Notes: generated from the letters alone by a model not told the origin. A stretch of 64,000 nt of DNA from Deltaproteobacteria bacterium (GCA_016874975.1 VGSQ01000001.1:3474-67473); one strand, 5' to 3'. Counted from the stretch's first letter, positions 12,257 to 57,147 are shown. Made by a program: numbers and translations.

Positions 12257-12448
12257 ATGGAACGGATTAAACGGTTTATCCACGCAGACTCCGGCGTCAC
12301 CGCCATGGAGTACGCCATGATCCTGGGCCTGTTGGCCGCGGCCATTCTGGCTGGCATTGGTCTCTTTTATGGCAACATGGCCACGCTGTTCAACGCCTGG
12401 GCCACGTGGTTCACGAGCCCCAGCACCAAGGCGCCGGTGGGAAGCTGA
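12257..12448 (+). CDS. flp: Flp family type IVb/c pilin
   Basis: Start at ATG 12257 after gaggagga. 'MERIKRFIHADSG/VTAMEYAMILGLLAAAIL' is the Flp G/xxxxEY motif with a hydrophobic helix. 63 aa. Confidence 0.9.
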   Translation: MERIKRFIHADSGVTAMEYAMILGLLAAAILAGIGLFYGNMATLFNAWATWFTSPSTKAPVGS

Positions 12449-12495
12449 CGTCAGCCCCTGAAGCTGCGTCCTGTTAACCGCGAGGACCAACGGCC

Positions 12496-12690
12496 ATGCA
12501 ACGGGCGATAAAGTTTCTGAGGGACGACGCGGCCGCCACCGCCATGGAATATGGGATGATCCTGGGTCTGGTGGGGGCGGCCATCCTGGTGGCCATTAAC
12601 CTCTTTTACACCAATCTGGCCACCATCTTTTTCGCTTGGGCCGGTTGGTTCACCAGCCCCTCCACCACCAATCCGGTGGGAGGAAGTTGA
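12496..12690 (+). CDS. flp: Flp family pilin (second copy)
   Basis: 64 aa; 'DDAAATAMEYGMILGLVGAAIL'. The C-terminal half is nearly the same as the first copy ('WFTSPST'). Confidence 0.88.
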   Translation: MQRAIKFLRDDAAATAMEYGMILGLVGAAILVAINLFYTNLATIFFAWAGWFTSPSTTNPVGGS

Positions 12691-12697
12691 CCGGGGC

Positions 12698-12743
12698 GTC
12701 CCGGGAATTCCCGGGACACCTCCCTTTATCGAGGTGGTTTTTA
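12698..12743 (+). terminator. hairpins after the pilin genes (candidate attenuator/terminator)
   Basis: 20-nt perfect palindrome GTCCCGGGAATTCCCGGGAC (12698-12717), then CACCTC-N8-GAGGTG followed by GTTTTTA. Confidence 0.45.
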
Positions 12744-12950
12744 GGGCGGCTCGCGGCGGATGCGGCCGCCCTGAAAACTCCCGGGGCTTGGCGGCGGTTC
12801 AGCCATGATGGGCCACAAGCCTGCGGGGCCGGCCCGGCCCCTGCAGCAGTGAAGGGGGGCGGGACGCACCCTGAGCGGCTGCATGAATGAGTGGCGAGGC
12901 CGGGCATGTTGCGGTAAAATAAAAAGAAACACTGAAGGAGACGGGGGGCG

Positions 12951-13520
12951 ATGGTGAGCGACTGGTGGCAGCAGGTTTACCCCTGGCTGGCGGCCCGGGG
13001 TCCCCTCCTCGCTCCCCTGTTATTGACGCTCTGGATGGCCTGGGGCGACATCCGCACCCATCGCATCCCCAACTACCTGACCTTCGGCACGGCCCTCACC
13101 GGATTGGGTTACCAACTGTGGGCCGGGGGCTGGGGCGGTTTGTGGGACGGCTTCCTGGGGCTCCTGCTGGGCTTTTTCCTGCTCATCCTGCCCTACGCTT
13201 TGGGGGGCATGGGGGCGGGCGACGTCAAGGCCCTGGCGGGCCTGGGCGCCTGGCTGGGAGTGAAGCAGACCTTCATCCTGTTTATCCTGATGGGAGTGGC
13301 CGGCGGCGTGCTGGCCATCCTGGTGGTCTGTTGGCGGGGGCAGGTGCGCGAGAAGCTGAAGGCCTGGAAGGTGATGGTGATGAATTTCATGCTCATCCAC
13401 GCCGGGGGCGGCAAGCGCACGGCGCCTGCCGCGGCGGAGACTCCCCGGCCCCAGGAGAAAGGCTTCGCCTACGGCGTGGCCCTGGCCCTGGGAATGGTAG
13501 CCCTGTTTGTGCGAGGTTAA
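12951..13520 (+). CDS. cpaA: A24 family prepilin peptidase (CpaA/TadV type)
   Basis: 189 aa polytopic; both aspartate motifs are present: 'WGDIRTHRIPNYL' and 'GGMGAGDVKALAGLG'. Confidence 0.9.
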   Translation: MVSDWWQQVYPWLAARGPLLAPLLLTLWMAWGDIRTHRIPNYLTFGTALTGLGYQLWAGGWGGLWDGFLGLLLGFFLLILPYALGGMGAGDVKALAGLGAWLGVKQTFILFILMGVAGGVLAILVVCWRGQVREKLKAWKVMVMNFMLIHAGGGKRTAPAAAETPRPQEKGFAYGVALALGMVALFVRG

Positions 13521-13526
13521 GAAACC

Positions 13527-13982
13527 ATGAGTGTCCGACGGCGTGTGCGCAGGTTTTCCCGGGGCCAGCGGGGAGTGGCGGCGGTGGAGCTGGCCATCAT
13601 CATCCCCGTGTTCCTGCTGATGCTCTTCGGGGTGCTGGAGTTCGGGCACACCTGGTACATCCAGCACGCCCTGACCAACGCCAGCCGGGAGGGGGCAAGG
13701 TACGGCATTGTTTACAAGAATTTTACGACTCCCCCTTACACCCGCATGCCCCCGCAAGCCTTCACCCCCTCCATCCAGGAGGTCGTCGACGGCTATCTCC
13801 TGCAATTTTTCGCGGCCAAATTCTGGGAAGTGAAAATATTAAAAGGAGGGTCTGCCACTACGGCAGGTAGCGACCTTGAGGTAGAAGTCTCTGCGGACAA
13901 GGCATGGTTCGCGCTGGGGGGGCTGGTGCCCGGCCTGACCACCATCAAACTGAAGGCGACCACCACCATGAAACTGGAGTGA
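13527..13982 (+). CDS. tadE: TadE-like pseudopilin
   Basis: 151 aa; 'GVAAVELAIIIPVFLLMLFGVLEFG' is the TadE N-terminal motif. Confidence 0.85.
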   Translation: MSVRRRVRRFSRGQRGVAAVELAIIIPVFLLMLFGVLEFGHTWYIQHALTNASREGARYGIVYKNFTTPPYTRMPPQAFTPSIQEVVDGYLLQFFAAKFWEVKILKGGSATTAGSDLEVEVSADKAWFALGGLVPGLTTIKLKATTTMKLE

Positions 13983-13992
13983 GGACAAAAGT

Positions 13993-14817
13993 ATGAAGCT
14001 TCCCGCGGGCGTAAAGTATTTGATTCTGGCAGGGGTGGTGGGCCTGGTGGCCACCGTCCTGATTCACCGCTACATCACCACCAAGACGGTGACCATCGTC
14101 AGACCCACGGACCAGGTGGTGGTGGCCACGGTGGAGATTGAGCCCGGCACGGCCCTGAGCGGCCGCATGGTTTCCGTGGCCACCTGGCCCAAGGAGATCA
14201 TCCCGGCCAACGCCATCCGCAGCCTGGAGCAGCTTGAGGGCCGGGTGGTGCAGACTTACATCAGCAAGGGCGAGCCGGTGCTCACCACCAAGCTGGCCCC
14301 GGTGGGCACCGCCGCCGGGCTGGGCGGCTTGCTGAAGCCGGGCCTGCTGGCGCTGACCATTCGCACCGACGAAGTCTCCGGGGTGGCGGGCTTCATCCAC
14401 CCGGGCGACCTGGTGGACGTGCTGGCGGAACTGCCCTCGCCCTCCGGCGGCGGGGAGCACTTCTCCAAGGTGATCCTGCAGGGTCTCAGGGTCCTGAGCA
14501 AAGGGCAGATCACTGACCAGACCGGCGAGAAGAAGCCCCAGGTGGTGACCACGGTGACCCTGGAGGTCACCCCGGAGCAGGCCGAAATCCTCAACCTGGC
14601 CAGCTTCCAGGGCAAGATCCGCCTGGCCCTGCGGAACCAGTTGCATAAGGAAACGTACGTCACGGCGGGCGTGGTGACCTCCCAGCTCATCACCAAGTCG
14701 CCTCCGCCCGTGGCCGCCGCGGAGGAGACCCCCAAGCCGCAGCCGGAGGTGAAGCGCAAGGCGGAGCGGGAAGTGGAAGTGATCAAAGGGATGAAGCGGA
14801 GCTCCTCCAACCTGTAA
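13993..14817 (+). CDS. cpaB: Flp pilus assembly protein CpaB/RcpC
   Basis: 274 aa; N-terminal TM segment and SAF-like region. About 80% identical by eye to 54626-55447. Confidence 0.88.
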   Translation: MKLPAGVKYLILAGVVGLVATVLIHRYITTKTVTIVRPTDQVVVATVEIEPGTALSGRMVSVATWPKEIIPANAIRSLEQLEGRVVQTYISKGEPVLTTKLAPVGTAAGLGGLLKPGLLALTIRTDEVSGVAGFIHPGDLVDVLAELPSPSGGGEHFSKVILQGLRVLSKGQITDQTGEKKPQVVTTVTLEVTPEQAEILNLASFQGKIRLALRNQLHKETYVTAGVVTSQLITKSPPPVAAAEETPKPQPEVKRKAEREVEVIKGMKRSSSNL

Positions 14818-14952
14818 GCATGAAGCTTCAAGCCATCCGTCAGGCGCTTACCAGGGAGGGATGGGGCGGAGGGCCGGCAGGGAGGCTCGGTGGCGCCGGC
14901 CCTGAAGTTGCCGCCCCAGTATGCCGATCAAGGAGAGAGGGCAAGGCGCTGG

Positions 14953-16161
14953 ATGAAACCTGAAATACTCACCATTGCCATCCTGTTCGGGGCAGGCGCG
15001 CAGAAGCCCGAGGTGCTGGAATTGGTGCAGGGCCTGCCCCACACCAAGCTCCTTTTCAGCGCCCTGGACGCGGAAAGTTTTCTCGCCCGGATCGGAGACC
15101 GCCCCCCGAAGGTGGCCCTGCTGGACCTGGACAACGCCACCACGGTGCCAACCTGGCTGGACAGCCTGGTGAAACGCCTGCCGCGCTGCGCCATCCTGGT
15201 CACCTGCCATAACCTGGACCCGCTGTTCATCATCAAGATCATGCAGCGCAAGGTGCGGGACTACCTGACGTCGCCGCTCCAACGGGAGGAGTTGCTGGCG
15301 GCCCTGGACCGGGTGCGCACCGACCCCCACCGCGAGAGCGGCGAGGGCGCCTCGCACTGCCAGACCGTGGTGGTGGCGGGGGCCAAAGGGGGCGTGGGCA
15401 CCACCTGCATCGCCACCAATCTGGCGGTGGCCATGGCGGAGCGCCAGCCGGGACGGGTGGTGCTGGTGGACCTGGCCCGGCCCTTCCCCAATGTCGGGCA
15501 ATTTCTGGACCTGAAGTCGCCCCACAGCATCATGGACCTGGTGGACAAGGTGGACCGGCTGGACTCCGTGTTTCTGGGCAAGATTCTGCAAAACCACCCC
15601 CGCAACCTGACGGTGTTGCTGGGGTACGGGGGGTTGAGCCTCAACGCCCATCCGCTCTTGGAGCCCGACATCCTGGACAAGATTTTTCACAGTCTGAAAG
15701 CCTCCTTTGATTGGATCGTGGTGGACCTGGGGCACTGGCTGGACTCCCTCTACCTCAAGGTGGTGGAGGAGGCGGATCAGATTTTGCTGGTCACGGAGTT
15801 GTCCGTCCCCGATTTACAGAACCTGAAGAAGATTCACGGCTATTTTCAGCACTGGCAGATTGACCCCGCCAAGATCCGCCTGGTGGTCAACCGCTACAGC
15901 AAGAGCTTCACCCTGGGATTGCGCGACCTGGAGGGGGTGTTTCAAAAGCCGGCGGACTTTGCGCTTCCCAGCGATTACGCCAACCTTATCGAAGCCATCA
16001 ACCAGGGGGCGCCTCTGGCCGAGGTGGCCCCCCGGTCCAAGCTCTGGCGGGAGCTGCAGGGGGTGGCCGAGTCCGTTATCCGGTCCCGCCAGGTCGGTCC
16101 GGCAGCGGCGGCCCCGCCTCGGAAAAGCTGGTGGCGCCGTCTCTTTTCTTCCAAGGAGTAA
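14953..16161 (+). CDS. cpaE: CpaE/TadZ-like pilus localisation ATPase (receiver-like + ParA/MinD fold)
   Basis: 'VVVAGAKGGVGTTCIATNLAVA' deviant Walker A after a receiver-like N-domain. ATG 14953 preferred over GTG 14890. Confidence 0.85.
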   Translation: MKPEILTIAILFGAGAQKPEVLELVQGLPHTKLLFSALDAESFLARIGDRPPKVALLDLDNATTVPTWLDSLVKRLPRCAILVTCHNLDPLFIIKIMQRKVRDYLTSPLQREELLAALDRVRTDPHRESGEGASHCQTVVVAGAKGGVGTTCIATNLAVAMAERQPGRVVLVDLARPFPNVGQFLDLKSPHSIMDLVDKVDRLDSVFLGKILQNHPRNLTVLLGYGGLSLNAHPLLEPDILDKIFHSLKASFDWIVVDLGHWLDSLYLKVVEEADQILLVTELSVPDLQNLKKIHGYFQHWQIDPAKIRLVVNRYSKSFTLGLRDLEGVFQKPADFALPSDYANLIEAINQGAPLAEVAPRSKLWRELQGVAESVIRSRQVGPAAAAPPRKSWWRRLFSSKE

Positions 16162-16167
16162 TGCATC

Positions 16168-17574
16168 ATGGCTTGGTTGTACGATCCCAGGAAAGGACCG
16201 GGGGGGTCCCAGGAAGGCAACGGCCCCGGCGAGGCTTCCGGCGAAGCCAAAAGCGGTCCCCAGGAAAGTCGCAGCACCCGCCTCCACGAAATCAAGACCC
16301 GCCTGCACCGCAACCTGGTGGAGCGTCTGGACATCGACCAGTTGCAGCAGATGGATGAGGCGGTGGTGGCCAGTGAGATCCACCGGGCCGTGGCCATTCT
16401 GTTGGCGGACGACCCCTTCCCCCTGACTTTGGAGGAGCGGGCCAAGATCGCCCAGGAACTGGAATTCGAGATCCTGGGATTGGGGCCCCTGGAGCCCCTG
16501 ATGCGGGACCCCACCATCTCCGACATCATGGTCAACCGCCACAATGAGGTCTATATCGAACGCCACGGGCGCATGGAGCTGACGCCCATTAAGTTCCGGG
16601 ACAACACCCACCTGATGCGCATCATCAACAAGATCGTCAGCAACGTGGGCCGGCGCATCGACGAGTCCTCGCCCATGGTGGACGCCCGGCTGCCCGACGG
16701 CTCCCGGGTGAACGCCATCATTCCGCCCCTGGCCCTGGACGGCCCCCTGCTGTCCATCCGGCGGTTCATGGTGATGCGGCCCACCATGGACGAGATTCTC
16801 AAGCGCCAGACCCTCACCCCGGAGATGGCCGAAGTGATGGAGGCCATCGTCAAGTCCAAGCTGAATATCCTCATCTCCGGCGGCACGGGCACGGGCAAGA
16901 CCACGCTGCTCAATATTCTGTCCGTTTACATCGGCGCCGAAGAGCGCATCGTCACGGTGGAGGACGCGGCGGAACTGCAGCTCCAGAAGCGCAACGTCTG
17001 CCGCCTGGAGACCCGGCCGCCCAACATCGAAGGCAAAGGCGAGATCAGCCAGCGAGAACTGGTGCGCAACTCCCTGCGCATGCGCCCCGACCGCATCATC
17101 GTGGGCGAGGTGCGGGGCGTGGAGGTCATGGACATGTTCCAGGCCATGAACACGGGTCATGAGGGCTCCATGAGCACCATCCACGCCAACAGTCCCCGGG
17201 ACGCCCTGCTGCGCCTGGAAACCATGGTCAATCTGGCGGGCTACCAGATCCCCCAGAAGGCCCTGCGCAACCTCATCAGTTCGTCCCTGGACGTCATCAT
17301 CCACCTGGCCCGGCACACCGACGGCGTGCGCCGCATCGTCTCGTTCTCGGAGATCACCGGCATGCAGGAGGACATCATCAGCCTGCAGGACATCTTCGTG
17401 TTCGACCGGCGGGGAATAGACGAGGAGGGCCATATCCTGGGGCAGTACATGTCCACCGGGGTGCGGCCCCGCTTCGCGGACCGTTGCCGGGTTTTCGGCC
17501 ACCCCGTCCCGGACGAATATTTCCTTCCGGCCCGGCTGGCCCGGTCCGGGTGGCTGGGCGGGGCCTCCGTCTGA
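16168..17574 (+). CDS. cpaF: CpaF/TadA secretion ATPase
   Basis: 468 aa; '[12 protein letters not shown]' Walker A, '[11 protein letters not shown]', '[12 protein letters not shown]', '[12 protein letters not shown]'. Confidence 0.97.
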
Positions 17575-17593
17575 GCTGCTGAGGAGTCATATC

Positions 17594-18589
17594 TTGGGAC
17601 CCTTTGCTACACGCGATCTCTGGTACGCCCTGGGCCTCTCGGGCATCCTGGTGGGGGTCATCCTGCTGGTGATGGCCTTGTATTACCTGTTGGTAGACCC
17701 GGTCAAACGGCGCCAGAAGATCATGGAACGGCTGGAGGCGGCCAGCGAAGAACACCTGAAAAAGGTGCAGGTGTTGAAGGCCGGGCTGGAGTCCCAGGGA
17801 AACCGGGCCATGGCCTTCATGAAGCGCTTTCTGGGGACCGGACGGCTCAGCCGGGTGCAAAGGATGCTCCTACAGGCGGACATTTTCTGGCTGCCCAGCT
17901 CCTTCCTGCTCCTGGTGGGGGGGCTGGGGGCGGCCGGATTTTTCGGCGGCTTTGTGCTCCTGGGCAGCCTCCTGTGGGGCCTCGCGCTCATGGTGGGGCT
18001 GGCCTCCCTGCCCTTCCTTTACGTGCGACGGAGGAAGAAGGTCAAGACCCTGCTCTTCGAGGAACAGATGCCCGACGCCATGGAGCTCATGGTGCGATCG
18101 CTCCGGGCCGGCCACACCATGCCTGCGGCCATCGAACTGCTGAGCAAGGAGATGAACCACCCCATGGGCTCCGAGATGCGGGTCACATATGAAGAACAGC
18201 GCTTCGGCATCAGCATTCCCGAATCGCTGCTGCACCTGCTGGAACGGGTGGAGTCGGACGACCTGCGCTATTTCGTCACCGCGGTGGTCATTCAGCACGA
18301 AGCCGGCGGCAATATCGTGGAAATCATCGAAAAGATCGGCATGGTGATCCGCAGCCGCCTCAACTTCAAGGCCAAAATCCGGGCCTTCACCGCCGAAGGT
18401 CGGCTCTCCGCCCTGGTGCTCATCATTCTGCCGGTGGCGCTGTTCTTCCTGCTCCTGGTCATTAAGAACGAGTACGAAGGGGTGCTGCTGCGCGATGAGT
18501 TGGGCCGCCGCTTCCTTATCGTGGGCGTCTTTATGCTCCTGGCCGGCGCATACGTCATGCGGCGCATCATCCGGTCGGTGGAGCTTTAG
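17594..18589 (+). CDS. tadB: TadB (type II secretion F-domain membrane protein)
   Basis: 331 aa polytopic; 'LPDAMELMVRSLRAGHTMPAAIE' GspF-like segment. TTG start as given by the track. Confidence 0.88.
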   Translation: MGPFATRDLWYALGLSGILVGVILLVMALYYLLVDPVKRRQKIMERLEAASEEHLKKVQVLKAGLESQGNRAMAFMKRFLGTGRLSRVQRMLLQADIFWLPSSFLLLVGGLGAAGFFGGFVLLGSLLWGLALMVGLASLPFLYVRRRKKVKTLLFEEQMPDAMELMVRSLRAGHTMPAAIELLSKEMNHPMGSEMRVTYEEQRFGISIPESLLHLLERVESDDLRYFVTAVVIQHEAGGNIVEIIEKIGMVIRSRLNFKAKIRAFTAEGRLSALVLIILPVALFFLLLVIKNEYEGVLLRDELGRRFLIVGVFMLLAGAYVMRRIIRSVEL

Positions 18590-18609
18590 GGGATGCAGGA
18601 GAACCCGTC

Positions 18610-19545
18610 ATGCTGTGGCTGATTCTCATCACCTCCTTTCTGGCCGTCTTCCTGTTGATCTACGCCCTGGAGTTGGTCTGGGACCGGCGGCGCCGCATCC
18701 GGGATCAGTTGACCAACCCCGATCCCTGGCAGAGCTCAGCCCTGCTGAAGCCCGACCCTGAGCGCTCCGCGGTCAAGGAAATGGCCCTGAAGTGGCTCTC
18801 GGCCTCGGGCTACTGGACCCTCAAGGACCCCAAGAATCTCTCCCGGATGCGGGAGACCCTGATCCAGGCCGGGTTCCGCCATCCCCAGGCGCCCTTCATT
18901 TACATGAGCCTGCGGGCCCTCACCGCCCTGTGGTTGCCGGTGCCCTATCTGCTGCTGCTGGTCATCAAAGGCGGCGTCACGCCCCTGACCCTGCTGCCGG
19001 CTGTGGGCCTCTCCCTGGTGGGCTTCCTTTTGCCCACGCTGGTCCTCCGTTTTTACAAAGAGGGCCGGCAAAACCGCCTGGACCGGGCCCTGCCGGACAT
19101 CCTGGACCTGCTGGTCATCTGCATGGAGGCGGGGCTGTCCCTCAACGCCTCCCTGAACCGGGTGGCCGAGGAGATCAAGCTGGTTTACCGGGATTTCTAC
19201 GTGGAGTTGCAGATCACCAGCGCCGAACTGCGGGCCGGCCTCCCCTGGGACGAGGCCCTGGACAACCTGGGCCGGCGCACCGGCGTGCAGAGCATCAAGT
19301 CGCTGGTGGCCCTGATGATCCAGTCGGAGAAGCTGGGGGCCAGCATCGGCCAGGCCCTGCGCAACCACGGCGAGTTCACCCGCACCCAGCGGGCCCTCCG
19401 GGCCGAAGAGCGGGCGGCCAAACTGGCGGTGAAGATCGTCTTCCCCCTGGTCTTCTTCATCCTGCCCGTCATGTTCATCATCACCGTGGGGCCGGCCATC
19501 ATTCATATTATCAGGACCATGTTCCCGGCTATCCTGGGAAAATAG
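18610..19545 (+). CDS. tadC: TadC (type II secretion F-domain membrane protein)
   Basis: 311 aa; 'LPDILDLLVICMEAGLSLNASL' GspF-like segment, TMs at both ends. Confidence 0.88.
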   Translation: MLWLILITSFLAVFLLIYALELVWDRRRRIRDQLTNPDPWQSSALLKPDPERSAVKEMALKWLSASGYWTLKDPKNLSRMRETLIQAGFRHPQAPFIYMSLRALTALWLPVPYLLLLVIKGGVTPLTLLPAVGLSLVGFLLPTLVLRFYKEGRQNRLDRALPDILDLLVICMEAGLSLNASLNRVAEEIKLVYRDFYVELQITSAELRAGLPWDEALDNLGRRTGVQSIKSLVALMIQSEKLGASIGQALRNHGEFTRTQRALRAEERAAKLAVKIVFPLVFFILPVMFIITVGPAIIHIIRTMFPAILGK

Positions 19546-19700
19546 GATGTTCCCCCCTCGCTCCGCCGTCGCGGCCGAGGGGTCGGTTGCATTACCGCTT
19601 TCTGATGATTATTTTAAACTGAAAATCTCCAACCCCTGTGCCCCCGTCACAGGAAACAGGCCCGCATTTCGGGAAGCCATCAAGCAAATGGAGAAGTGAG

Positions 19701-20894: not shown

Positions 20895-21104
20895 GGCCTG
20901 TTCCGGCCACGCGGTCCCCAATCAGGCTCCGGACGCCTCAACGCCGGCAGGGCTGTTGAAAATCGGGCGAAACGCCGGTCGTCATTCTGACCGCAAAGGG
21001 GATCCTTGCGGCTATCCCGGCCCTGTGACCGGGGCGGCGCGCAGAATGACAACCTCATGTGTACCGACGGGTTTTGCAACCGCCCGTTGAGGAGAAACCT
21101 GAAT

Positions 21105-22188: not shown

Positions 22189-22599
22189 GCTCTCTAACCC
22201 GGCGCCGTTTTCTCTAACCCGCGTTCCCAGGCTCTGCTTGGGAACGCCCTTGCCCCCGAAGCTCCGGCTTCGGACCACGGTCCACCGGCAAAGATCCGCA
22301 GGATGCGTCTTACGCCCCATTGCCGGGGGCCGTCGGCGGGCAGAGCCCGCCCTGCCGCGCCGACCTGCTCCAATGGTCAGAGGCACGGTTCTTGCTGAAT
22401 CAGTTTGACGGCAGCACGAATAATTCCGGCCCCTGCCCGGCTTTTCAAGCGCCGGCAGGGCCGCCCCTCAGGCCGGTAAAGCCTTGCCCGTTTCTGTTCT
22501 GATTTTTGTTGAGACAAAATTAAAACCGGAAACCGACCTTGCCGGATGACACCTGAAGTACAAGTAATTATGTAAATTATCCATGAGGCTCTTGCAAAA

Positions 22600-22750
22600 C
22601 TTCCGGTGCAGCGTCATAGTTTCCCAAATATCATGGTGCGCGGTGCGCACCCTACAGATTCTTCCGGTGCAGCGTCATGGTTTCCCAAATATCATGGTGC
22701 GCGGTGCGCACCCTACAGCCCCCAAGTAGGGTGCGCACCGCGCACCATGA
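22600..22750. repeat. 61-bp-period tandem duplication ending in a perfect 25-bp stem-loop
   Basis: 58-nt units at 22600-22657 and 22661-22718 differ at one base. TCATGGTGCGCGGTGCGCACCCTAC (22692-22716) is perfectly complementary to GTAGGGTGCGCACCGCGCACCATGA (22726-22750), with a 9-nt loop. Confidence 0.9.
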
Positions 22751-25236: not shown

Positions 25237-25372
25237 TCGCCCTCGTTCCCAAGCTCCTGCCCCGGCGCCGCAGGGCGGGCTCTGCCCGCCGCCGGCCCCC
25301 GGCAATGGTGCGTGAGACGCACCCTACGGAACTGATAATAACATAGGGGCGGTTCGCGAACCGCCCCTACGT
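25237..25372. repeat. mosaic intergenic repeat modules
   Basis: 25258-25328 is the reverse complement of 22295-22365 with few changes. Hairpins GGTGCGTGAGACGCACC and AGGGGCGGTTCGCGAACCGCCCCT. Confidence 0.75.
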
Positions 25373-48779: not shown

Positions 48780-49769
48780 TCAGACCTTGATTTTGATCAG
48801 ACGCTGCATCCACAGGTAGCCGGTAAGGATGCCCAGACCTCCTGCGGCCAGCATCTTGGCGCCGACAGGTTCCTCAAAAAAAGGCTGCACATATTTGGGA
48901 TTGAGGTAGAGCAGGACGACAAAGAGGCCCACCGGCAAGAGGCTGAGGATGAGGGCCGAGAACCGCCCCTCCGCGGTGATGGCTTTGATCTTGCCCTTGA
49001 GCTTGAGCCGCTCCCGGATCAGGTAGCCGATGTTTTCCATGACTTCGGCCAGGTTGCCGCCGGTTTCCGCCTGCAGGGTGACGGCGGTGATGAAATACTG
49101 CAGGTCCTGGCTGTCCACCCGCTCTCCCATGCGTTGGAGGGCGTTTTGCAGGCTCAACCCCAGGCGCTGCTCCTCATAGACCACCTTCATTTCCGTGCCC
49201 AGGGGGGCGGCGATCTCCCGGCTCCCCAGGTCGATGGCCGAAGGCAGGGTGTGGCCGGCCCGCAGTGACCGGGCCAACAGCTCCATGCCCTCAGGCATCT
49301 GCGTTTCGAACTTTTTGGTCTTCTGGTTTCTTTTCAGGTTGAGGTAGAAGACCGGAGCCCATCCCAGGGCCGCGGCCAGGACCAACCCCACCAGCAGCTT
49401 GTCCCGCAGCAGCCCCGCCATGAGCCCCACGGAGGCCAGGATGCCGCAGACGCTCAGGAAGGTGGCCGGGGTCCAGAAGATATCCGCTTGCAGCAGCTTC
49501 CGCCGCAGGTTTTCGATCTTACCCCACCCCACCAGGCGTTCCACAAAGAGCAGCACCACACTCTTGTCGGCCTGGACCACAGCCTTGAGGATCTGCACCC
49601 GCTGCACCCGGGCCCGATGGCCCAGGAGACGCCGGTTCAGGTCCCGCTTCCAGAGGAGGGGCCGCAACACCAGGTGGAAGAGCCCCGAGGCCAAAAGAAA
49701 AATGCCCACAAAGACGGCGACCAATGCCAGGGCGTATTCGCTGTTGGTGTTGAGTTTGAGAAAACCCAT
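48780..49769 (-). CDS. tadB: TadB
   Basis: Start moved to ATG 49769 (MGFLKLNTNSEYALALV...), 13 nt after the cpaF stop and colinear with the TadB1 N-terminus. 'MPEGMELLARSLRAGHTLPSAID'. Confidence 0.86.
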   Translation of the reverse strand: MGFLKLNTNSEYALALVAVFVGIFLLASGLFHLVLRPLLWKRDLNRRLLGHRARVQRVQILKAVVQADKSVVLLFVERLVGWGKIENLRRKLLQADIFWTPATFLSVCGILASVGLMAGLLRDKLLVGLVLAAALGWAPVFYLNLKRNQKTKKFETQMPEGMELLARSLRAGHTLPSAIDLGSREIAAPLGTEMKVVYEEQRLGLSLQNALQRMGERVDSQDLQYFITAVTLQAETGGNLAEVMENIGYLIRERLKLKGKIKAITAEGRFSALILSLLPVGLFVVLLYLNPKYVQPFFEEPVGAKMLAAGGLGILTGYLWMQRLIKIKV

Positions 49770-49782
49770 GCCTGTGCCTCGC

Positions 49783-51189
49783 TCAATTGTGGGCGAATTT
49801 GAAACCATAGGCCCGGCTGGGGCCTTCGAAAACCTCGTCCCGGATGGGCACCCCGAAGAGCTTGCAGCGGTCGGCGAAGCGGGGCCTCACCCCCGTCGCC
49901 ATGAACCGGCCCAGCACCTTTTCCTGTTGGTCCACTTCGTGGCGCTCGAACACAAAGATGTCCTGGAGGCTGATGACCCCGCTCTCCATCCCGGTTATTT
50001 CGGAGAAGGAAACCAAGCGGCGGACGCCGTCGGTGTGACGGGCCAACTGGATAATGACGTCCAGAGAGGAGCTGATCATCTGGCGCATGGCCTTTTCGCT
50101 GACGCTGATGCCGGAGAGCTGGATCATGGTCTCCAGGCGCAACAAAGCCTCCCGGGCATTGTTGGCGTGCACGGTGGTCATGGAGCCTTCATGCCCGGTA
50201 TTCATGGCCTGGAACATGTCGATAACTTCGGCCCCCCGCACCTCGCCCACAATGATACGGTCCGGGCGCATGCGCAGGGTGTTGCGCACCAACTCCCGCT
50301 GGGAGACTTCACCTTTGCCTTCGATGTTGGCCGGCCGGGTCTCCAGGCGGCAGACATGCTCCTGCTGGAGCTGCAGCTCGGCGGAGTCCTCAATGGTGAC
50401 GATGCGCTCATTGTTGGGAATGAAACCGGAGAGGATGTTCAGCAGGGTGGTCTTGCCCGCGCCGGTGCCGCCGGAGATGAGCACGTTGAGCTTGGCCACG
50501 GCGATGGCTTGCAGCACTTCGCCGATCTCCGGCGTCAGGGAACCCTTCTGGATGAGGTCCTCCAGACTGGGCCGCTGCACCGAAAAGCGCCGGATGGACA
50601 GCATGGGGCCGTCCAGGGCCAGGGGCGGGATGATGGCGTTGACCCGGGAGCCGTCCGGCAGCCGGGCGTCCACCATGGGGTTGGACTCGTCGATGCGGCG
50701 CCCCACGTTGGCCACGATCTTGCCGATAATTTTGAGGAGGTGATTGTTGTCCTGAAAGCGGATGTGGATGCGCTCCAGCTTGCCGCCGCGCTCCAAGTAG
50801 ACCTGGTCCCAGCGGTTGACCAGGATGTCGGAGATGCTGTGGTCCTTGAGAAGCGGCTCCAGGGGGCCCAGGCCCAGGATTTCGAATTCCAGTTCCTGAG
50901 CCAGCCGCGCCTTTTCCTGGGTGTTGAGGGGTTCCGTCTCCTCTTCCATGAGCTGGGTCAGGGCCTCCCGGATTTCCCGGGCCACCAGGCTCTCTTCCAG
51001 AGACTCCAGCTTTCCCAGGTCCAACTGTTCCAGGAGTTGCTGATGCACCCGGGTCTTGACCGCGTTGAGCCGGGCCTCCCGGCCTGCGTCCACCCGCACC
51101 GGGGCTAGGACGGCGTAAGAGGGCTCCGGTTCTTTTTCTTTGGGTTTGGCATCTGGCGCCATCTTCTTGTTGTAGCGGAGGAAGGCCAT
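49783..51189 (-). CDS. cpaF: CpaF/TadA secretion ATPase
   Basis: 468 aa; '[12 protein letters not shown]', '[11 protein letters not shown]', '[12 protein letters not shown]'. Confidence 0.97.
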
Positions 51190-52395
51190 TTATTTCCCCT
51201 TCCCCAGCCCCAGGAATTGACGCCAGGAGCGGCCGGCCGCCTTGCCTTCCTCCACCTCACCCAGGATTTCCCGGCTTAACAGCCGGCTCATCTCCTGGAT
51301 GCCGGTCCACAGCTTGGAGCGGGGCGCCACCCGTCCCAGGGGCACACCCCGGTTGATGGCTTCAATGAGAGGCTCATAGTCGCTGGGAAGCAGATGAAAC
51401 ACCTTGGCCCTGACCAGCTTTTCCAGGTTGCTCACCCGCACGCTGTTGCCTTTGTAGTGGCGGTTCACCACCAGGTGAATCTTGTTGGCGATCTCCGGCC
51501 ACTCCCGCAGGGTGGGCCACAGGTTGCCCAGGTTGCGCAGGTCCGGCACGGTGAGCTCGGTAAGCAGCAGCGTGGCGTCGGCCTCCCGCAGGACGTGGAG
51601 AAAGAGTTCATCCAGCCAGTGGCTCAGGTCCACCACAATCCAGGGGTAGAGGCCGCGCAGCAAGGAAAAAATCTTGTCCAGCGCGGTCAGGTCCAGGCTG
51701 TCCTGAAGGTGAAAGTCGGTGATGCCGTGGAGCACGGCCAGATTGTCGTCCCCCTTCTGCACGATCTTGCGCATGAAGTCCCGGTCCAGTTCGGACAGGT
51801 TCTTCACCAGATCGTGGATGGAATAGGGGGACTCCCGGTCCAAAAAGTTGCAGATGTCGGGAAAAGGGCGGCCCAGGTCCATCAGCACCACGGTCTCCCC
51901 GTGGAGTTCGGCCAGGGCCGCGCCCAGGTTGAGGGCCAGGCTGGTGACCCCGGCGCCTCCCTTGTGGGCCGTCACCACCACCAATTTGCCCCGGGTGACC
52001 AACACCGGCTGCAAACGGCGGCGGGTGGTGCGCACCCGTTCCAGGGCGGCTTCCAGCTCCTCCCGGGCCAGGGGCAGGGGCAGGAATTCCCGCACCCCCG
52101 CCTGCATGGCCTTGATGATGAAGTCGGGCTCCCGGGTCCCGGAGCACACCAACACCGCGGTCTGGGGAAGTTTCTGGGTCAGCTCCGTAAGCCAGGGAGG
52201 CAGAATCTGCTCCCCATCCAGGTAGACCAGGACGGAATCCGGCGCTGAGACCGGTTCGCCGGCCAGCAATTGCTCGGGATGGGCGGCTTCGGTCACCACC
52301 TCCACCTGGGGCAGGTCTTTGAGAAAGGCCGGCAGCAGCGGCTGCTCCTGGCCTGTCCCGTAAAGCACCGAAACCTTAAGCGACTCGGTCGTCAT
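51190..52395 (-). CDS. cpaE: CpaE/TadZ-like ATPase
   Basis: 401 aa; receiver-like N-domain and 'VVVTAHKGGAGVTSLALNLGAA'. Confidence 0.85.
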   Translation of the reverse strand: MTTESLKVSVLYGTGQEQPLLPAFLKDLPQVEVVTEAAHPEQLLAGEPVSAPDSVLVYLDGEQILPPWLTELTQKLPQTAVLVCSGTREPDFIIKAMQAGVREFLPLPLAREELEAALERVRTTRRRLQPVLVTRGKLVVVTAHKGGAGVTSLALNLGAALAELHGETVVLMDLGRPFPDICNFLDRESPYSIHDLVKNLSELDRDFMRKIVQKGDDNLAVLHGITDFHLQDSLDLTALDKIFSLLRGLYPWIVVDLSHWLDELFLHVLREADATLLLTELTVPDLRNLGNLWPTLREWPEIANKIHLVVNRHYKGNSVRVSNLEKLVRAKVFHLLPSDYEPLIEAINRGVPLGRVAPRSKLWTGIQEMSRLLSREILGEVEEGKAAGRSWRQFLGLGKGK

Positions 52396-52749: not shown

Positions 52750-54231
52750 TCATTCCACCGGCCGGTGTCCGAACGCCGGCGGTAGTTGGACTTCAGGCCG
52801 TGGTCTGGCCGATCCGGGCTGCCCTCTCCCCTGGTCCAGCCCCAACAGATAAAACTCCACGTTGTCGGGCTCGACATACTTGTCGGTGGGGAGGCGGACC
52901 GCGGAGGCGGCAACGGGTTTCACCAGGTAGGGCGTCACCAGCACCACCAGTTCGGTTTCCGATTTCTGGAATTGGCTGGAACGGAACAACGTCCCCAGCA
53001 CGGGAAGGTTCCCCAGCACCGGAAATTTGTTGATAACGGTGCGGTGCTGGTCGCTGAGCAGGCCGGCGATGGCGAAAGTCTGGCCGTCCTGCATCTCCAC
53101 GTGGGTGGACAAGCGGCGCACCGACAGGCCCGGCACCACGAAGCCCTGGGTGACCAGGGTCTGGCCCTGGGTGAAGTCCAGTTGTGACACTTCCGGGGCC
53201 ACCCGCAGGGCGATCTTGCCGCCGTCCAGGACGGTGGGCGTCACCACCAGGCCTACGCCGAACTTTTTGTATTCAATGGTGACGGTCTGAAACTGCTGCG
53301 GCACCGGGATGGGGAACTCGCCGCCGGCCAGGAAAGAGGCCTCCTGGCCGCTGGTGGTCACCAGGTTGGGCTCCGCCAGGATGCGCCCCAGGCCGTTCTG
53401 CTTGAGGATGTCGAAAAACATGGTCCACAGCCAGGTCCCCGTCCTGAAGCCGGCCAGGGCGTTGATGTTGGGACCGATGCTCTGGGTCAGGGTGGTGCCG
53501 GTGAAGGACCGCACGAATTCGGTGACGCTGGTCAGGCTGGCCAACTGGCTGACGCCGAAGCTCTGACCGGTGCGGTCGATGGCGATGAAGTTGATGCCGA
53601 TGCGGTTCAACACGCTGCGGTTGATCTCCGCCAGCCGCACCTCCACCATCACCTGCTGCACCCCCCCGATGTTGAGCAGATTGATGACCTTATCCTTTTT
53701 ATTGCCCACGAAAGGCAGCGCCAGAGCCACCGCGGTCTGCTGGGCGATGGGCCCCGACACCTCGCCGCTCAGCACCACCGAGTCGTCCGCGGCCTGGACC
53801 GCGATCTTCTCCTTGGGCAGCACCTGGGCCAGCTTCTCCTTCAGCATGGTGACGTCGGCTTCCACCGTCACCCGGGCCGAGGTGAAGCGGGTCTTGCCCC
53901 ACAGGCTCAGATTGGTGACGCCCGGGGCGATGCCGTTGATGTAGATTTCCCGTTCTGACGTAAGAATGATGTCGGCCACCTCGGGGTTGGCCACCGAGAC
54001 CCGGGTCAGGGCGAAGGGGGTGCGCAGCACCTTGGACTGCCCCACCCGGAGGCTGAGGGTTTGTTGGATCTCCTGGTCCCGGATTCGGCCCAGGGGACCG
54101 GCCGCCCAGGTCGGCGTCACCAGGGCCGCCAACAGCAGGGCCAGCCCCAGGCCCGCCAGCCGGCGACGCCAGGCCGAGGGTATGGAAGGTAGGTCCCTCC
54201 CTTGTACCATTTTTCTCCTTATCACCATCAT
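52750..54231 (-). CDS. cpaC: CpaC/RcpA secretin
   Basis: 'FPVLGNLPVLGTLFRSSQFQKSETELVVLVTPYLV' secretin C-domain signature; N-terminal signal peptide and BON-like region. ATG 54231 has the best GGAGG spacing (the track uses TTG 54237). Confidence 0.93.
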   Translation of the reverse strand: MMVIRRKMVQGRDLPSIPSAWRRRLAGLGLALLLAALVTPTWAAGPLGRIRDQEIQQTLSLRVGQSKVLRTPFALTRVSVANPEVADIILTSEREIYINGIAPGVTNLSLWGKTRFTSARVTVEADVTMLKEKLAQVLPKEKIAVQAADDSVVLSGEVSGPIAQQTAVALALPFVGNKKDKVINLLNIGGVQQVMVEVRLAEINRSVLNRIGINFIAIDRTGQSFGVSQLASLTSVTEFVRSFTGTTLTQSIGPNINALAGFRTGTWLWTMFFDILKQNGLGRILAEPNLVTTSGQEASFLAGGEFPIPVPQQFQTVTIEYKKFGVGLVVTPTVLDGGKIALRVAPEVSQLDFTQGQTLVTQGFVVPGLSVRRLSTHVEMQDGQTFAIAGLLSDQHRTVINKFPVLGNLPVLGTLFRSSQFQKSETELVVLVTPYLVKPVAASAVRLPTDKYVEPDNVEFYLLGLDQGRGQPGSARPRPEVQLPPAFGHRPVE

Positions 54232-54441
54232 ATCCAATTCCTCCCCAGTTCCCCTTTAACACCCTTCTGGGGAAGATGTCAATGAAATTCTTTTATCTAC
54301 GATTAAAGAAACTTTCATAATTTTTTCTTGGCACAACAATAGAGCCCTGTACAGACATGGGTGCTTTAGAAAGATGATCGGGGCGCCTCTTGAAAATTCC
54401 TTGTCATTGTTAACTCGTGTTCATCCGGAAAGTCGTTTTGT

Positions 54442-54555
54442 TCCCTCCCCCTTGATGGGGGAGGGTTAGGGTGGGGGTGAAATAAGTTAGCAATACAGAC
54501 CAGTTGCCCTATTGATCCCCCTCCCCCCAACCCCCTCCCACCAAGGGAGGGGGAG
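54442..54555. repeat. G-run/C-run hairpin element, copy C (uninterrupted)
   Basis: tccctcccccttgatgggggagggttagggtgggggtg-N37-ccccctccccccaaccccctcccaccaagggaggggg. Lies between cpaB and cpaC of locus 2. Confidence 0.85.
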
Positions 54556-54625
54556 TTTCCGGATGAGGACTAACTCAACGTGGCGATGTGCAAAACCGCC
54601 GGTCTGTTCTCCAGTAATTCCTTTG

Positions 54626-55447
54626 CTAAATCTCCGCTTCCTGGCGCTTGAGGCCCTTGATCAGTTCCACGGCGCGGCGCTCCTTGGCAGTGGCCGCCGG
54701 TTTGGCGGGCGCCTCCTCCTTGACCGCGGCGGCCGCGGCCCGACCCCGAAAAAGATGCGAAGTCATAACACCGGCCGTGACATAAAGCTCCGGAGACAAC
54801 TGGTTGCGCAACGCCAAGCGGATCTTCCCCTGGAAGCTGGCCAGGTTCAGAACCTCGGCCTGCTCGGGGGTGACCTCCAACGTCACCGTGGTCACCACCT
54901 GGGGTTTCTTTTCCCCCAACTGGTCGGTGGTCTGTCCCTTGCTCAGCACCCGCAGGCTTTGCAGAATGATCTTGGAGAAATGCTCCCCGCCGCCGCTGGG
55001 CGAGGGCAGCTCCGCCAGCACGTCCACCAGGTCGCCCGGATGAAGGAACCCGGCCACTCCGGAGACCTCGTCGATGCGCACCGTCAGGGCCAGCAGGCCT
55101 GGCTTGAGGAGGCCCCCCAGACCCGCGGCGGTGCCCTCCGGGGCCAGCTTCGTGCTGAGCAGCGGCTCACCCTTGCTCACGTGGGTCTGCACCACCCGCC
55201 CCTCCAACCGGTCCAGGCTGCGGATGGCGTTGGCGGGTATCAGCTCCCGGGGCCAGGTGGCCAGGGAGATCAGGCGGCCGGTGACCGCCGTGCCCGGTTC
55301 CATCTCCGCGGTGGCCACCACTACCTGATCCGAGGGCTTGACCACGGAAACGGTCTTGGTGGTGATGTAACGGTGGATCAGGGCGGTGGCCACCAGGCCC
55401 ACCACCCCCGCCAACACCAGATAGGACGCGCCTTTGGGCAGTTTCAT
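54626..55447 (-). CDS. cpaB: CpaB/RcpC
   Basis: 273 aa; paralog of 13993-14817. Confidence 0.88.
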   Translation of the reverse strand: MKLPKGASYLVLAGVVGLVATALIHRYITTKTVSVVKPSDQVVVATAEMEPGTAVTGRLISLATWPRELIPANAIRSLDRLEGRVVQTHVSKGEPLLSTKLAPEGTAAGLGGLLKPGLLALTVRIDEVSGVAGFLHPGDLVDVLAELPSPSGGGEHFSKIILQSLRVLSKGQTTDQLGEKKPQVVTTVTLEVTPEQAEVLNLASFQGKIRLALRNQLSPELYVTAGVMTSHLFRGRAAAAAVKEEAPAKPAATAKERRAVELIKGLKRQEAEI

Positions 55448-55450
55448 GGC

Positions 55451-55909
55451 TCACTCGCTCTTCATGGTGGTGCTTGACGAAAATGTCATGTTCTTCAAGG
55501 TGGGGATGAAATTCCCCAGAAGGTCCCAGGGATTGGTGCAATCGACCTTCACCGTGAGATCGTCCCCCGGATTGGCCCGGGTGTAGCCCAGCCCCGAGGG
55601 CGTGGGCACCGTCCAGGAGCCGCCGGGCAACAGACCGGTGATATAATTGTTCACCACGTCCTGGATGCGGTTGGGGGCAGTCAGATTGGACGGCGGAATC
55701 CGGTTGCCGCTGGTGTCGTAGCGGTAGATGACGCCGTAGCGGGCCCCTTCCCGGGTGGCGTTGGTGATGACGTATTTGGCGTACCAGGCCAGGCCGAACT
55801 GCAAAATCCCCAAAATAATGAGCATCAGGACGGTGAGGAGGATGGCGAATTCCACCATCGCCACCCCCTCGGACCGCTTAAGGAACCGGCAGCATGATCG
55901 CCTTGCCAT
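55451..55909 (-). CDS. tadE: TadE-like pseudopilin
   Basis: 152 aa; 'GVAMVEFAILLTVLMLIILGILQFG'. Confidence 0.85.
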   Translation of the reverse strand: MARRSCCRFLKRSEGVAMVEFAILLTVLMLIILGILQFGLAWYAKYVITNATREGARYGVIYRYDTSGNRIPPSNLTAPNRIQDVVNNYITGLLPGGSWTVPTPSGLGYTRANPGDDLTVKVDCTNPWDLLGNFIPTLKNMTFSSSTTMKSE

Positions 55910-55912
55910 GGG

Positions 55913-56467
55913 TTACATCTCCTTCAGAAAGACGCTGACCACCCCCAGCATGAGAACCACCCCGTAAGGGATGGCCATCATGGTGATGCGGGCCTGATTG
56001 GGACTCACCGCGGCCTCCAGGGGACGGCGGCACACCCGGTTGAAGAGAGCGGCGCCGCAGCAGCGCATCCGCCAGACCAGCTCTCCCCGGGACCAGATCG
56101 CATAAAGGGCCAACAGGCCGGCCATGCACCCCATATAGGAGAAGAGCAGAAAGACGCGCCCCGGACCCAGCCAGGCGCCCAGAGAGGCCAAAGCCTTCAG
56201 ATAGCCCTCGTCGATGCCGCCCAACCGGTAAGGAATGAGCAGCATCCCCACGGCCACCGTCAACCCCAGGATGCCGTCCACCAGGCCGGGCCAGCCCAGA
56301 AACCAGCACTGGTGGGCCAGGCCGGCCAGGGTGGCGCCCAGGATCAGGATAAGGGGAACGGCCCGACGCCGTTCATCACCCCAGGCGATCCACAGCACCA
56401 ACAACAGAGGCCACAGCAGGTGTCCCTGCACACTGACCCAGGAAAAAGCAGCTTGTACGCCGGACAT
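55913..56467 (-). CDS. cpaA: CpaA/TadV-like prepilin peptidase homolog lacking the second catalytic Asp motif
   Basis: 184 aa polytopic; 'WGDERRRAVPLIL' keeps the first Asp. 'GGIDEGYLKALASLG' replaces 'GGMGAGDVKALAGLG' of the locus 1 paralog. Confidence 0.75.
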   Translation of the reverse strand: MSGVQAAFSWVSVQGHLLWPLLLVLWIAWGDERRRAVPLILILGATLAGLAHQCWFLGWPGLVDGILGLTVAVGMLLIPYRLGGIDEGYLKALASLGAWLGPGRVFLLFSYMGCMAGLLALYAIWSRGELVWRMRCCGAALFNRVCRRPLEAAVSPNQARITMMAIPYGVVLMLGVVSVFLKEM

Positions 56468-56559
56468 GAGACCTTCCTTTCGCGCCTGAGAGGGGCGCCT
56501 CTCCGGAAACGCCGCCTCCGCTGCATGTCGCCGAGAATGAACGCAGCACGGAGCGTCCG

Positions 56560-56667
56560 TTACACCAGACGCCCGAGAGCCGCCACCGCCATCACACTGA
56601 ACACCAGAGACAACACGCCGGTGGTGACGGCCCAGATCATGCCTTTCACTTCTTCACAGGCATTCAT
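56560..56667 (-). CDS. hypothetical 35-aa hydrophobic peptide
   Basis: Own translation MNACEEVKGMIWAVTTGVLSLVFSVMAVAALGRLV* with RBS ggaggga 6 nt upstream. Below the track cutoff; no counterpart in locus 1. Confidence 0.35.
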   Translation of the reverse strand: MNACEEVKGMIWAVTTGVLSLVFSVMAVAALGRLV

Positions 56668-56720
56668 GTCGCTCCCTCCAGAAACATGAGTCGCATGGAA
56701 AAGTAACAAGCTATTTTCCG

Positions 56721-56885
56721 TCATTTGGCAAGGTTGCCTGCCACTTCATTATACTTTGACATCAGACTCGACCCTAAGGCGCCAACCGCCAAAATGCAAG
56801 CAAGGGCGATGAAGGTTACCAGTAAGCCGTATTCCACCATGCTGGCTCCTTCACAGTCTTCCCAAAATTCTTGCATCCGCTTCAT
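56721..56885 (-). CDS. flp: Flp family pilin
   Basis: ATG 56885 after ggaggg. 'MKRMQEFWEDCEG/ASMVEYGLLVTFIALACILAV'. 54 aa. Confidence 0.88.
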   Translation of the reverse strand: MKRMQEFWEDCEGASMVEYGLLVTFIALACILAVGALGSSLMSKYNEVAGNLAK

Positions 56886-56925
56886 GCCTTGGCCCTCCAC
56901 CACTCTATTTCGTCATTTGGAAATG

Positions 56926-56956
56926 CCGGGTCCGGCGGGGGGGCCGCTGGACCCGG
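56926..56956 (-). other. stem-loop between the two flp genes of locus 2
   Basis: CCGGGTCC-N15-GGACCCGG, an 8-bp GC stem with no clear U-tract. Confidence 0.35.
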
Positions 56957-56982
56957 ATATCTTTGGTTAAGATTTCTTGTTA

Positions 56983-57147
56983 TTATTTAGCCTTACCCAG
57001 CTCGGCAGAGGTGTTTGTGAACGTGGTACTCAAGTTGGTGCCGACCGCGGTAACGGCAACGATACAGACCACAGCGATGAGGGCCACCAGCAGACCGTAT
57101 TCCACCATGCTGGCGCCGGATTCATCCTTCAAAAACCTTTTCAGCAT
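56983..57147 (-). CDS. flp: Flp family pilin
   Basis: Own translation (below track cutoff): MLKRFLKDESG/ASMVEYGLLVALIAVVCIVAVTAVGTNLSTTFTNTSAELGKAK*, with RBS aaggaggg. Confidence 0.88.
   Translation of the reverse strand: MLKRFLKDESGASMVEYGLLVALIAVVCIVAVTAVGTNLSTTFTNTSAELGKAK

Follow-up and report, generated by a model that had tools for sequence, protein, structure and literature searches.

Results

Two facing Tad/Flp loci, only one of which encodes a secretin

We analyzed a 64-kb window of the genome of a Deltaproteobacteria bacterium (GCA_016874975.1, VGSQ01000001.1:3474-67473; window genome, W), in which two Tad/Flp pilus loci face each other across a gene island. Based on open reading frames (ORFs) and Pfam, locus 1 (12257-22148, + strand) consists of two flp genes followed by cpaA, tadE, cpaB, cpaE, cpaF, tadB, tadC and two tadG-like genes. 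Locus 2 (57147-42963, - strand) consists of flp, flp, cpaA, tadE, cpaB, cpaC, a lipoprotein gene, cpaE, cpaF, tadB, tadC, a TPR-LytR_C gene, a TPR gene and tadG (Table 1). An earlier reading made from the sequence only had placed two facing loci with a shared core gene order at these positions, and ORFs, pairwise BLASTP and Pfam bore this out. The gaps left in that shared order, however, had hidden an asymmetry, as the secretin, the lipoprotein and both TPR genes occur in locus 2 only. Pfam searches of the locus 1 ORFs gave no secretin and no TPR genes, and cpaC was the sole secretin detected by Pfam within the 64 kb. Below, the suffixes 1 and 2 denote the locus type.

Table 1 Positions and supporting evidence for the features of the two Tad/Flp loci and their surroundings
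Feature	Position	Strand	Basis
flp pair, type 1	12257-12448, 12496-12690	+	Pfam Flp_Fap
cpaA1, prepilin peptidase with both catalytic motifs intact (GD...IPN, GAGDVK)	12951-13520	+	Peptidase_A24, 65.5 bits; alignment
tadE1, pseudopilin	13527-13982	+	Pfam TadE
cpaB1 (RcpC homolog)	13993-14817	+	Pfam SAF and RcpC; PDB 9GZR RcpC match over aa 69-222
Putative homogenized cpaB1 core, codons ~31-210	14083-14622	+	Informative sites, max-chi2, core tree
cpaE1	14953-16161	+	Pfam ParA-like
cpaF1	16168-17574	+	Pfam T2SSE
tadB1	17594-18589	+	Pfam T2SSF
tadC1	18610-19545	+	Pfam T2SSF
Two tandem TadG-like genes	19638-20894, 21006-22148	+	Pfam Tad and Tad_C; 50% mutual identity
Intervening island, 20.8 kb; mostly glycan, sulfation and efflux genes, no secretin	22149-42962		Pfam
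tadG2 (TadG-like)	42963-44033	-	BLASTP, 29-32% to locus 1 TadG-like proteins
TadD-like TPR gene, frameshifted	44403-45337	-	tblastn, two frames
TPR protein with two LytR_C domains, outer-membrane module part	45634-47814	-	Pfam
tadC2	47841-48770	-	BLASTP to locus 1 partner; Pfam on identical contig L003
tadB2	48780-49808	-	BLASTP to locus 1 partner; Pfam on identical contig L003
cpaF2	49783-51189	-	BLASTP to locus 1 partner; Pfam on identical contig L003
cpaE2	51190-52395	-	Pfam ParA-like
Small lipoprotein, 98 aa	52438-52734	-	Beside cpaC
cpaC, secretin	52750-54237	-	Pfam Secretin and T2SS-T3SS_pil_N
cpaB2; putative homogenized core ~54818-55357	54626-55447	-	Pfam SAF and RcpC
tadE2	55451-55909	-	Pfam
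cpaA2, degenerate prepilin peptidase	55913-56467	-	Peptidase_A24, 21.8 bits, under the 26.5 cutoff
Two short canonical flp genes, type 2	56983-57147, 56721-56885	-	Pfam Flp_Fap, 62 and 41 bits
Sigma-54 response regulator	57708-59144	-	Pfam
GAF/PAS histidine kinase	59231-62965	-	Pfam

The two loci are ancient paralogs

Divergence was not uniform across the components, with paralog identities from 24 to 76%. CpaB1 and CpaB2 were ~76% identical overall and 84.7% over amino acids (aa) 1-215, for which about 80% had been estimated by eye, and both contain the identical run HPGDLVDVLAELPSPSGGGEHFSK. The CpaF pair, earlier described as very similar through the ATPase core, was 62-67% identical overall and 72% over aa 91-440. 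Identities were 51% for TadC, 42% for TadB and CpaE, and 40% for CpaA; the pilins (24-34%), TadE (40%; N-terminal half 47%, C-terminal half 36%) and the TadG-like pairs (29-33%) were more diverged, in line with that reading. At the DNA level, the inverted repeats between the loci comprised cpaB (695 nucleotides (nt) at 81%) and cpaF (713 nt at 77%). The best cpaB match was 82% over 661 nt, the longest exact inter-locus match was 29 nt (14401-14429 with 55011-55039), and synonymous divergence (dS, NG86) was 0.65-1.2 across all paralog pairs.

The loci were compared with those of a sister metagenome-assembled genome (MAG), GCA_964522695.1 (S), which has a secretin-less type-1 locus (S1, contig L001) and a type-2 locus with secretin (S2, L009), and of MAG GCA_030018495.1 (Y), represented by Y1 (L002) and by Y2 (L027), the beginning of a type-2 locus. 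Z2 (L028) is the start of another type-2 locus, while A1 (L013, whose CpaB matches a UniRef entry named Desulfobacca acetoxidans) and B1 (L014) are both type 1. Orthologs of the inner-membrane motor and platform were found for type 1 in L001, L002, L013 and L014 and for type 2 in L009 (68-85% identity). A scan of genome contigs with CpaB returned only L001 and L002. Contigs from several Logan assemblies and from five or more JGI metagenomes carry identical window sequence; JGI samples tied to this organism are 3300020074, 3300020083, 3300020084, 3300020109 and 3300020603. The secretin homologs were labeled as Desulfobaccales MAGs.

In neighbor-joining trees, CpaE, CpaF, TadB and TadC each grouped as (W1,S1) and (W2,S2), both with 100% bootstrap support and with type 2 outside all type 1. 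TadE, encoded just upstream of cpaB, gave a type-2 clade (W2,S2,Y2,Z2) at 83%. CpaF orthologs were 83-85% identical (CpaF1 to its S ortholog, 83%), and identity to every other-type copy was 62-65%, so that the high identity of the CpaF paralogs reflects ordinary ATPase conservation. The ratio of nonsynonymous to synonymous divergence (dN/dS) between orthologs was at most ~0.3, indicating that both gene sets are held under purifying selection. As judged from these trees, the two loci are ancient paralogs whose type-1/type-2 split is older than all sampled Desulfobaccales lineages, and CpaE, CpaF, TadB and TadC diverged in the ordinary manner of old paralogs. The sequence-only reading had named two findings that would contradict it. 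The first, uniform divergence of all components, is not what the identities show. For the second, placement of the two loci in unrelated Tad clades, the actual result lies between: the two Tad sets form distinct, long-separated clades, but these were inherited together.

A different history had been proposed from the window: the duplication would be recent, or conversion still in progress, so that CpaF and CpaB stay near-identical as the fiber parts diversify, and the island could invert. The uneven divergence, with CpaB and CpaF as the most similar pairs, and the inverted arrangement of the loci are what such a history would produce, but the trees contradict it: the split is older than all sampled lineages, and CpaF is as distant from its paralog as from every other-type copy. 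Identical runs no longer than 29 nt and the absence of rearranged junctions in 21 contigs (see below) also speak against it, and we consider it barely credible. What holds of the proposal is that the loci are homologous and that gene conversion appears to have occurred; this conversion, however, was old and confined to the cpaB core, and the split itself is ancient. The supposedly near-identical motor does not hold up, since all four of its proteins group with their orthologs.

The cpaB core groups by genome

For CpaB, identities within genomes (W1-W2, 75.5%; S1-S2, 78.4%) were higher than between orthologs (W1-S1, 74.4%; W2-S2, 66.7%). Four-taxon informative amino-acid sites in cpaB were split by genome at 18 positions, by locus at 4 and crosswise at 3; in cpaE, cpaF, tadB and tadC, 58-84 sites were split by locus versus 1-2 by genome. 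The nucleotide-informative sites localized this signal. Codons 31-210 held 34 genome, 5 locus and 8 cross sites, codons 1-30 held 7 locus and no genome sites, and codons 211-274 held 8 genome and 14 locus sites (8 genome and 21 locus sites outside the core combined). In a max-chi2 breakpoint test, genome sites made up 38 of 46 inside the tract versus 4 of 22 outside, and none of 5000 permutations scored as high; the breakpoints are approximate and lie at codons 25-36 and 212-228.

Core identity within genomes was 84.4% for W and 87.2% for S, and all four between-genome pairs had 74-76%, regardless of locus type, which is the pattern predicted by complete homogenization after the lineages split. 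A tree of nine CpaB cores recovered (W1,W2), (S1,S2) and (Y1,A1,Y2,Z2), each at 100%, with Y2 and Z2 falling within the Y1/A1 clade. The gene ends instead gave (Y2,Z2) at 98% and (W1,S1) at 63%, and the N-terminus (K5, S8) and linker of cpaB2 retain type-2 signatures. TadE and all genes downstream of cpaB group by locus type. The core coincides with the domains of the D1-D2 ring, in Pfam SAF (aa 40-101) and RcpC (aa 111-214), and aligns over aa 69-222 with the dodecamer structure of Pseudomonas aeruginosa RcpC (9GZR). Taken together, these site patterns and trees indicate that the D1-D2 core of cpaB underwent old, repeated interlocus gene conversion, apparently independently in at least three lineages.

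Four-fold synonymous differences were 0.31 within genomes and 0.32-0.38 between genomes, the same-codon excess was equal across all pairs, and strictly synonymous informative sites carried no phylogenetic signal in any gene, orthologs included (cpaF, 11 locus versus 15 genome). Given this saturation, synonymous sites neither confirm nor refute DNA exchange. Without any exchange of DNA, CpaB1 and CpaB2 could have changed in parallel while co-evolving with a lineage-specific partner, either the secretin or each other in mixed rings. Such parallel change would fit the lack of a genome-split excess among synonymous sites of cpaB (10 genome, 6 locus, 7 cross) and the equality of four-fold differences within and between genomes, but these sites are silent for true orthologs as well. 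Moreover, the 18 shared changes would need ~36 parallel substitutions, many of them conservative (L/V, K/R, L/M, D/E, L/I), the signal sits in a single uninterrupted block whose ends are sharp, and the four between-genome core distances are all equal. For these reasons, namely the block, the number and conservative nature of the shared changes and the equal distances, we prefer conversion and hold parallel change to be decidedly unlikely.

Saturated synonymous sites, identical runs of no more than 29 nt and a core DNA identity of 82% show that the conversion is old and not ongoing. A recent event was considered and rejected: dN/dS and synonymous-codon tests were saturated (G+C content at third codon positions ~0.9) and were uninformative for conversion as such, but excluded a recent one.

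Secretin modules occur in locus 2 and as orphans in relatives

None of the four type-1 orthologous loci (L001, L002, L013, L014) contains a secretin. Outside W and S, four secretin homologs were sampled (L011, L012, L023 and L024; 70-75% identity), and all of them lie in orphan modules composed of cpaC, a small lipoprotein gene and a TPR-LytR_C gene, without other tad genes within 10 kb. The protein with TPR and LytR_C domains is present in every orphan module, and the conserved neighbors are uvrC-mscL or GAPDH-DUF5714. The secretin closest to that of the window is the orphan of L023, which is accompanied by homologs of the Prim-Pol, hypothetical and ParA-like trio flanking locus 2; this shared neighborhood suggests that the locus 2 secretin occupies the orphan's place. 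In the S genome, the Prim-Pol gene directly follows the TPR genes.

As a separate observation, three genomes have this trio close to the secretin module (window 39472-42946, - strand; L009 19920-21413; L023 826-3998); it could be a stable neighbor or what is left of a mobile or plasmid-like element. The type-2 contigs of two other MAGs (L027, L028) break off no more than ~100-200 nt into the secretin gene, which may be due to fragmentation where co-occurring strains share conserved sequence, or to a second secretin copy of similar sequence. Two candidate continuations of the Y2 secretin, P0047 and P0064, did not match. A metagenome scan with the secretin for a second copy returned two short contigs with 65% identical fragments, neither from this organism.

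RcpC, anchored in the inner membrane, forms a dodecameric periplasmic ring, and binding to the secretin RcpA requires both its oligomerization and its C-terminal beta-hairpin (PMC12307814). CpaB1 has a transmembrane helix, an SAF domain (D1), an RcpC domain (D2), a Pro/Ala linker and a C-terminal EVIKGMKR hairpin motif, and the CpaB copies here share this plan with the RcpC of the Pseudomonas aeruginosa RcpC-RcpA pair (PMC12307814). All CpaB copies, those of secretin-less loci included, keep the C-terminal motif (V/I)E(V/I/L)IKG(M/L)(K/Q)R.

The two loci might also be independent systems, with locus 1 served by an orphan secretin elsewhere, locus 2 self-contained and cpaB homogenization a neutral, self-reinforcing conversion hotspot. 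Relatives do carry orphan secretin modules at other chromosomal sites, the visible portion of the genome is 64 kb, and cpaB is the best-conserved inter-locus stretch (81% over 695 nt). Yet cpaF, almost as similar (77% over 713 nt), has 84 locus-split sites versus 1 genome-split site, the nearest secretin (L023) is an orphan with the same Prim-Pol, hypothetical and ParA-like flank as locus 2, and the degenerate cpaA2 means that locus 2 is not self-contained. We therefore regard independence as unlikely.

Locus 2 carries degenerate parts

CpaA2 has GIDEGYLK in place of GMGAGDVK and VPL in place of IPN. CpaA1 and the CpaA proteins of S2, Y2 and Z2 keep GMGAGDVK and IPN, so that CpaA2 alone lacks both GxGD and IPN. 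Prepilin peptidases have two catalytic residues, one of them the GxGD aspartate, and with this motif lost CpaA2 is probably inactive; the locus 2 prepilins (G/ASMVEY) would then depend on CpaA1. A PDB search with CpaA1 returned no usable peptidase template. The TadD-like TPR gene has a frameshift near 44759-44768; its S ortholog is intact at 329 aa (tblastn, 64% and 77% identity in two frames), and the frameshifted sequence is identical in the independent assembly L003. In A, B and Y, the type-1 locus has no peptidase gene, so that the supply of parts across loci appears to be the norm in this group. In the sister MAG, a 458-aa TadG-like gene (L009 7354-8730) lies between tadE and cpaB and not at the locus end, so the type-2 gene order is not fixed.

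All four pilins of the window match Flp_Fap (PF04964), with flp1a at 30.5 bits slightly under the 32.2-bit cutoff. Their processing sites (G/XXXXEY) read G/VTAMEY, A/ATAMEY and, twice, G/ASMVEY. Type-1 Flp proteins have a long C-terminal 'F.AW..WF' and a Ser/Thr/Pro-rich tail, common to the type-1 pilins of other genomes. GT87 (GT-C) glycosyltransferase genes lie beside the type-1 loci, as do sugar-nucleotide genes. These neighbors, together with the Ser/Thr/Pro tails (window 12257-12690 and 7805-9016; L013 4433-8244; L014 4374-4829), hint at pilin glycosylation.

The island retains its parental orientation

The intervening region had been read as a ~20-kb envelope-glycan island. This fits most of its content, which includes GT2, GT9, YdjM, APS kinase, PAPS-reductase-like, phosphodiesterase, HlyD and OEP genes as well as genes for a Wzx-like flippase, TPR, GH-like, PMT_2 and GH42-like proteins, but not the end beside tadG2, where ParA-like, hypothetical and Prim-Pol genes lie on the - strand. 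The suggestion that recombination between the facing loci might invert these 20 kb found no support: inversion isomers were absent and parental junctions were seen in 10/10 cpaB1 and 11/11 cpaB2 contigs (21 independent contigs from at least five samples). At only 77-82% identity, the inter-locus inverted repeats have drifted too far apart to support efficient homologous recombination.

Contig breaks downstream of cpaB2 were considered as an invertible or variable junction and rejected, as they coincide with a multi-copy palindromic repeat, which points to an assembly-repeat effect and not to inversion. This ~146-bp palindromic element, resembling a miniature inverted-repeat transposable element (MITE) or a repetitive extragenic palindrome (REP), occupies 54421-54566 in the cpaB2-cpaC spacer, with related copies at 4620-4712 and in S (L001 7101-7217). 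The inverted repeats at its termini read TCATCCGGAAAGTC / GAGTTTCCGGATGA, and its interior holds C5TC3 / G3AG5 hairpins. Several metagenome contigs stop inside it, and L005 switches to toxin-antitoxin (PIN/PhdYeFM) genes at its edge. A further family of intergenic repeats lies within the island (22234-22750, 25263-25333, 31771-31892), comprising two tandem 58-nt units that are 98% identical, a perfect inverted repeat of 25 nt, TCATGGTGCGCGGTGCGCACCCTAC, and copies of 47-71 nt with 90-94% identity between the three intergenic spacers. Scans of the window for tRNAs and Rfam families gave no matches, and hence no integration landmarks for island mobility.

The sigma-54 response regulator and the histidine kinase lie upstream of the type-2 loci in W, S, Y and Z. 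A sigma-54 -24/-12-like site occurs ~65 nt upstream of the histidine-kinase gene (window 63030-63045, - strand; L027 628-643; L028 2417-2432) and is the only such site conserved across organisms (three organisms). Near-identical 16-mers were seen upstream of flp2a (57296-57311) and at the annotated tadG2 start (44029-44044, - strand), and another sigma-54-like site at 11919-11934 (+ strand), 325 nt upstream of flp1a. A sigma-54 promoter scan of the window gave no more sites in total than expected by chance; a regulator shared by both loci is a guess.

Discussion

We consider it probable, if not firmly so, that the window holds ancient paired Tad sets in which the cpaB core was converted and whose two machines likely share one secretin module via CpaB. 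Type 1 is the conserved Desulfobaccales set with its own motor, long-tailed pilins and CpaB and with no secretin or TPR/pilotin genes, and type 2 a set with the canonical full order, bearing the only outer-membrane module seen (CpaC, lipoprotein, TPR-LytR_C). Within each genome, the cpaB core would have been overwritten between the loci by non-reciprocal recombination (gene conversion). We infer that both inner-membrane machines would plug into one secretin module, on which the dodecameric CpaB ring and its C-terminal hairpin would dock. If the secretin is shared via CpaB, converted CpaB proteins that are interchangeable or co-assemble would be tolerated or favored, and hybrids of other parts would not. 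Dependence would be reciprocal, with locus 2 lacking the peptidase GxGD and carrying a frameshifted TPR gene, and locus 1 supplying the intact peptidase while using the locus 2 secretin.

The ancestor may accordingly be pictured as carrying a complete canonical type-2 locus and a type-1 set without secretin that relied on the outer-membrane module of type 2. Most lineages would then have lost the type-2 pilins and motor and retained the secretin module as an orphan, and W, S, Y and Z would still keep both sets. More tentatively, the two pilus fibers and motors may use one secretin alternately or jointly, with conversion keeping the CpaB rings interchangeable and the loci mutually dependent, and with the orphan module as the end-state; we see this as possible but doubtful.

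Several points weigh against the shared secretin module and the conversion of cpaB. The published contact with the secretin is the C-terminal hairpin, which falls outside the homogenized tract, so that the link from homogenization to secretin sharing is indirect. Synonymous sites are saturated in all comparisons, so DNA exchange is not separable there from parallel protein change. The pairing of S1 with S2 and of Y1 with Y2 follows from MAG binning alone. The cpaF genes are nearly as similar in DNA (77%) yet show no conversion, which a similarity-driven mechanism would not predict; a selective explanation does predict an unconverted cpaF, but is unproven. Finally, a second, orphan secretin serving locus 1 may lie beyond the 64 kb.

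Tad systems in diderms require an outer-membrane secretin (RcpA/CpaC). Locus 2 has the same parts in the same order as the canonical Tad/Flp systems (tad of A. actinomycetemcomitans, cpa of C. crescentus, flp-rcp-tad of P. aeruginosa), namely flp, peptidase, CpaB/RcpC, secretin, lipoprotein, TadZ/CpaE, TadA/CpaF, TadB, TadC, TPR and TadE/G-like components. It differs in that its peptidase lacks GxGD, a TPR gene is frameshifted and its TPR protein carries LytR_C domains; locus 1 differs from the same systems in lacking secretin and pilotin. Locus 2 is a member of the Tad/Flp type IVc group, and locus 1 an incomplete one. In contrast to the P. aeruginosa RcpC-RcpA pair, two CpaB paralogs may here serve one secretin.

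In Bradyrhizobium diazoefficiens, Tad clusters 1-4 include a complete cluster beside a conserved partial one that 'may not function independently' (PMC12918737). Here, in contrast, it is the partial cluster that is widely conserved, and in relatives the complete one decays until an orphan secretin module is left. Interlocus gene conversion between bacterial paralogs is known, for example, for tufA/tufB and rRNA operons. As in those cases, within-genome paralogs group against orthologs over a bounded tract; unlike them, the tract lies in one structural gene within two diverged multi-gene machines, and the process is old and not continuous. In our literature searches, we came across no account of concerted evolution confined to cpaB/rcpC, nor of a secretin serving two Tad motors.

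The present value of these observations is moderate, since the organism has not been cultured and the decisive functional step is deduced. CpaB/RcpC tracks the genome and not the locus, which calls for caution when it is used for phylogenetic typing of Tad systems. If the proposed model is true, CpaB/RcpC would be a modular adaptor between inner-membrane Tad machines and the secretin, and evolution would mark which part must stay compatible when machines share one exit. Secretin-less Tad loci in diderm MAGs can then be a conserved functional core set and not debris, and orphan Tad secretins would find an explanation.

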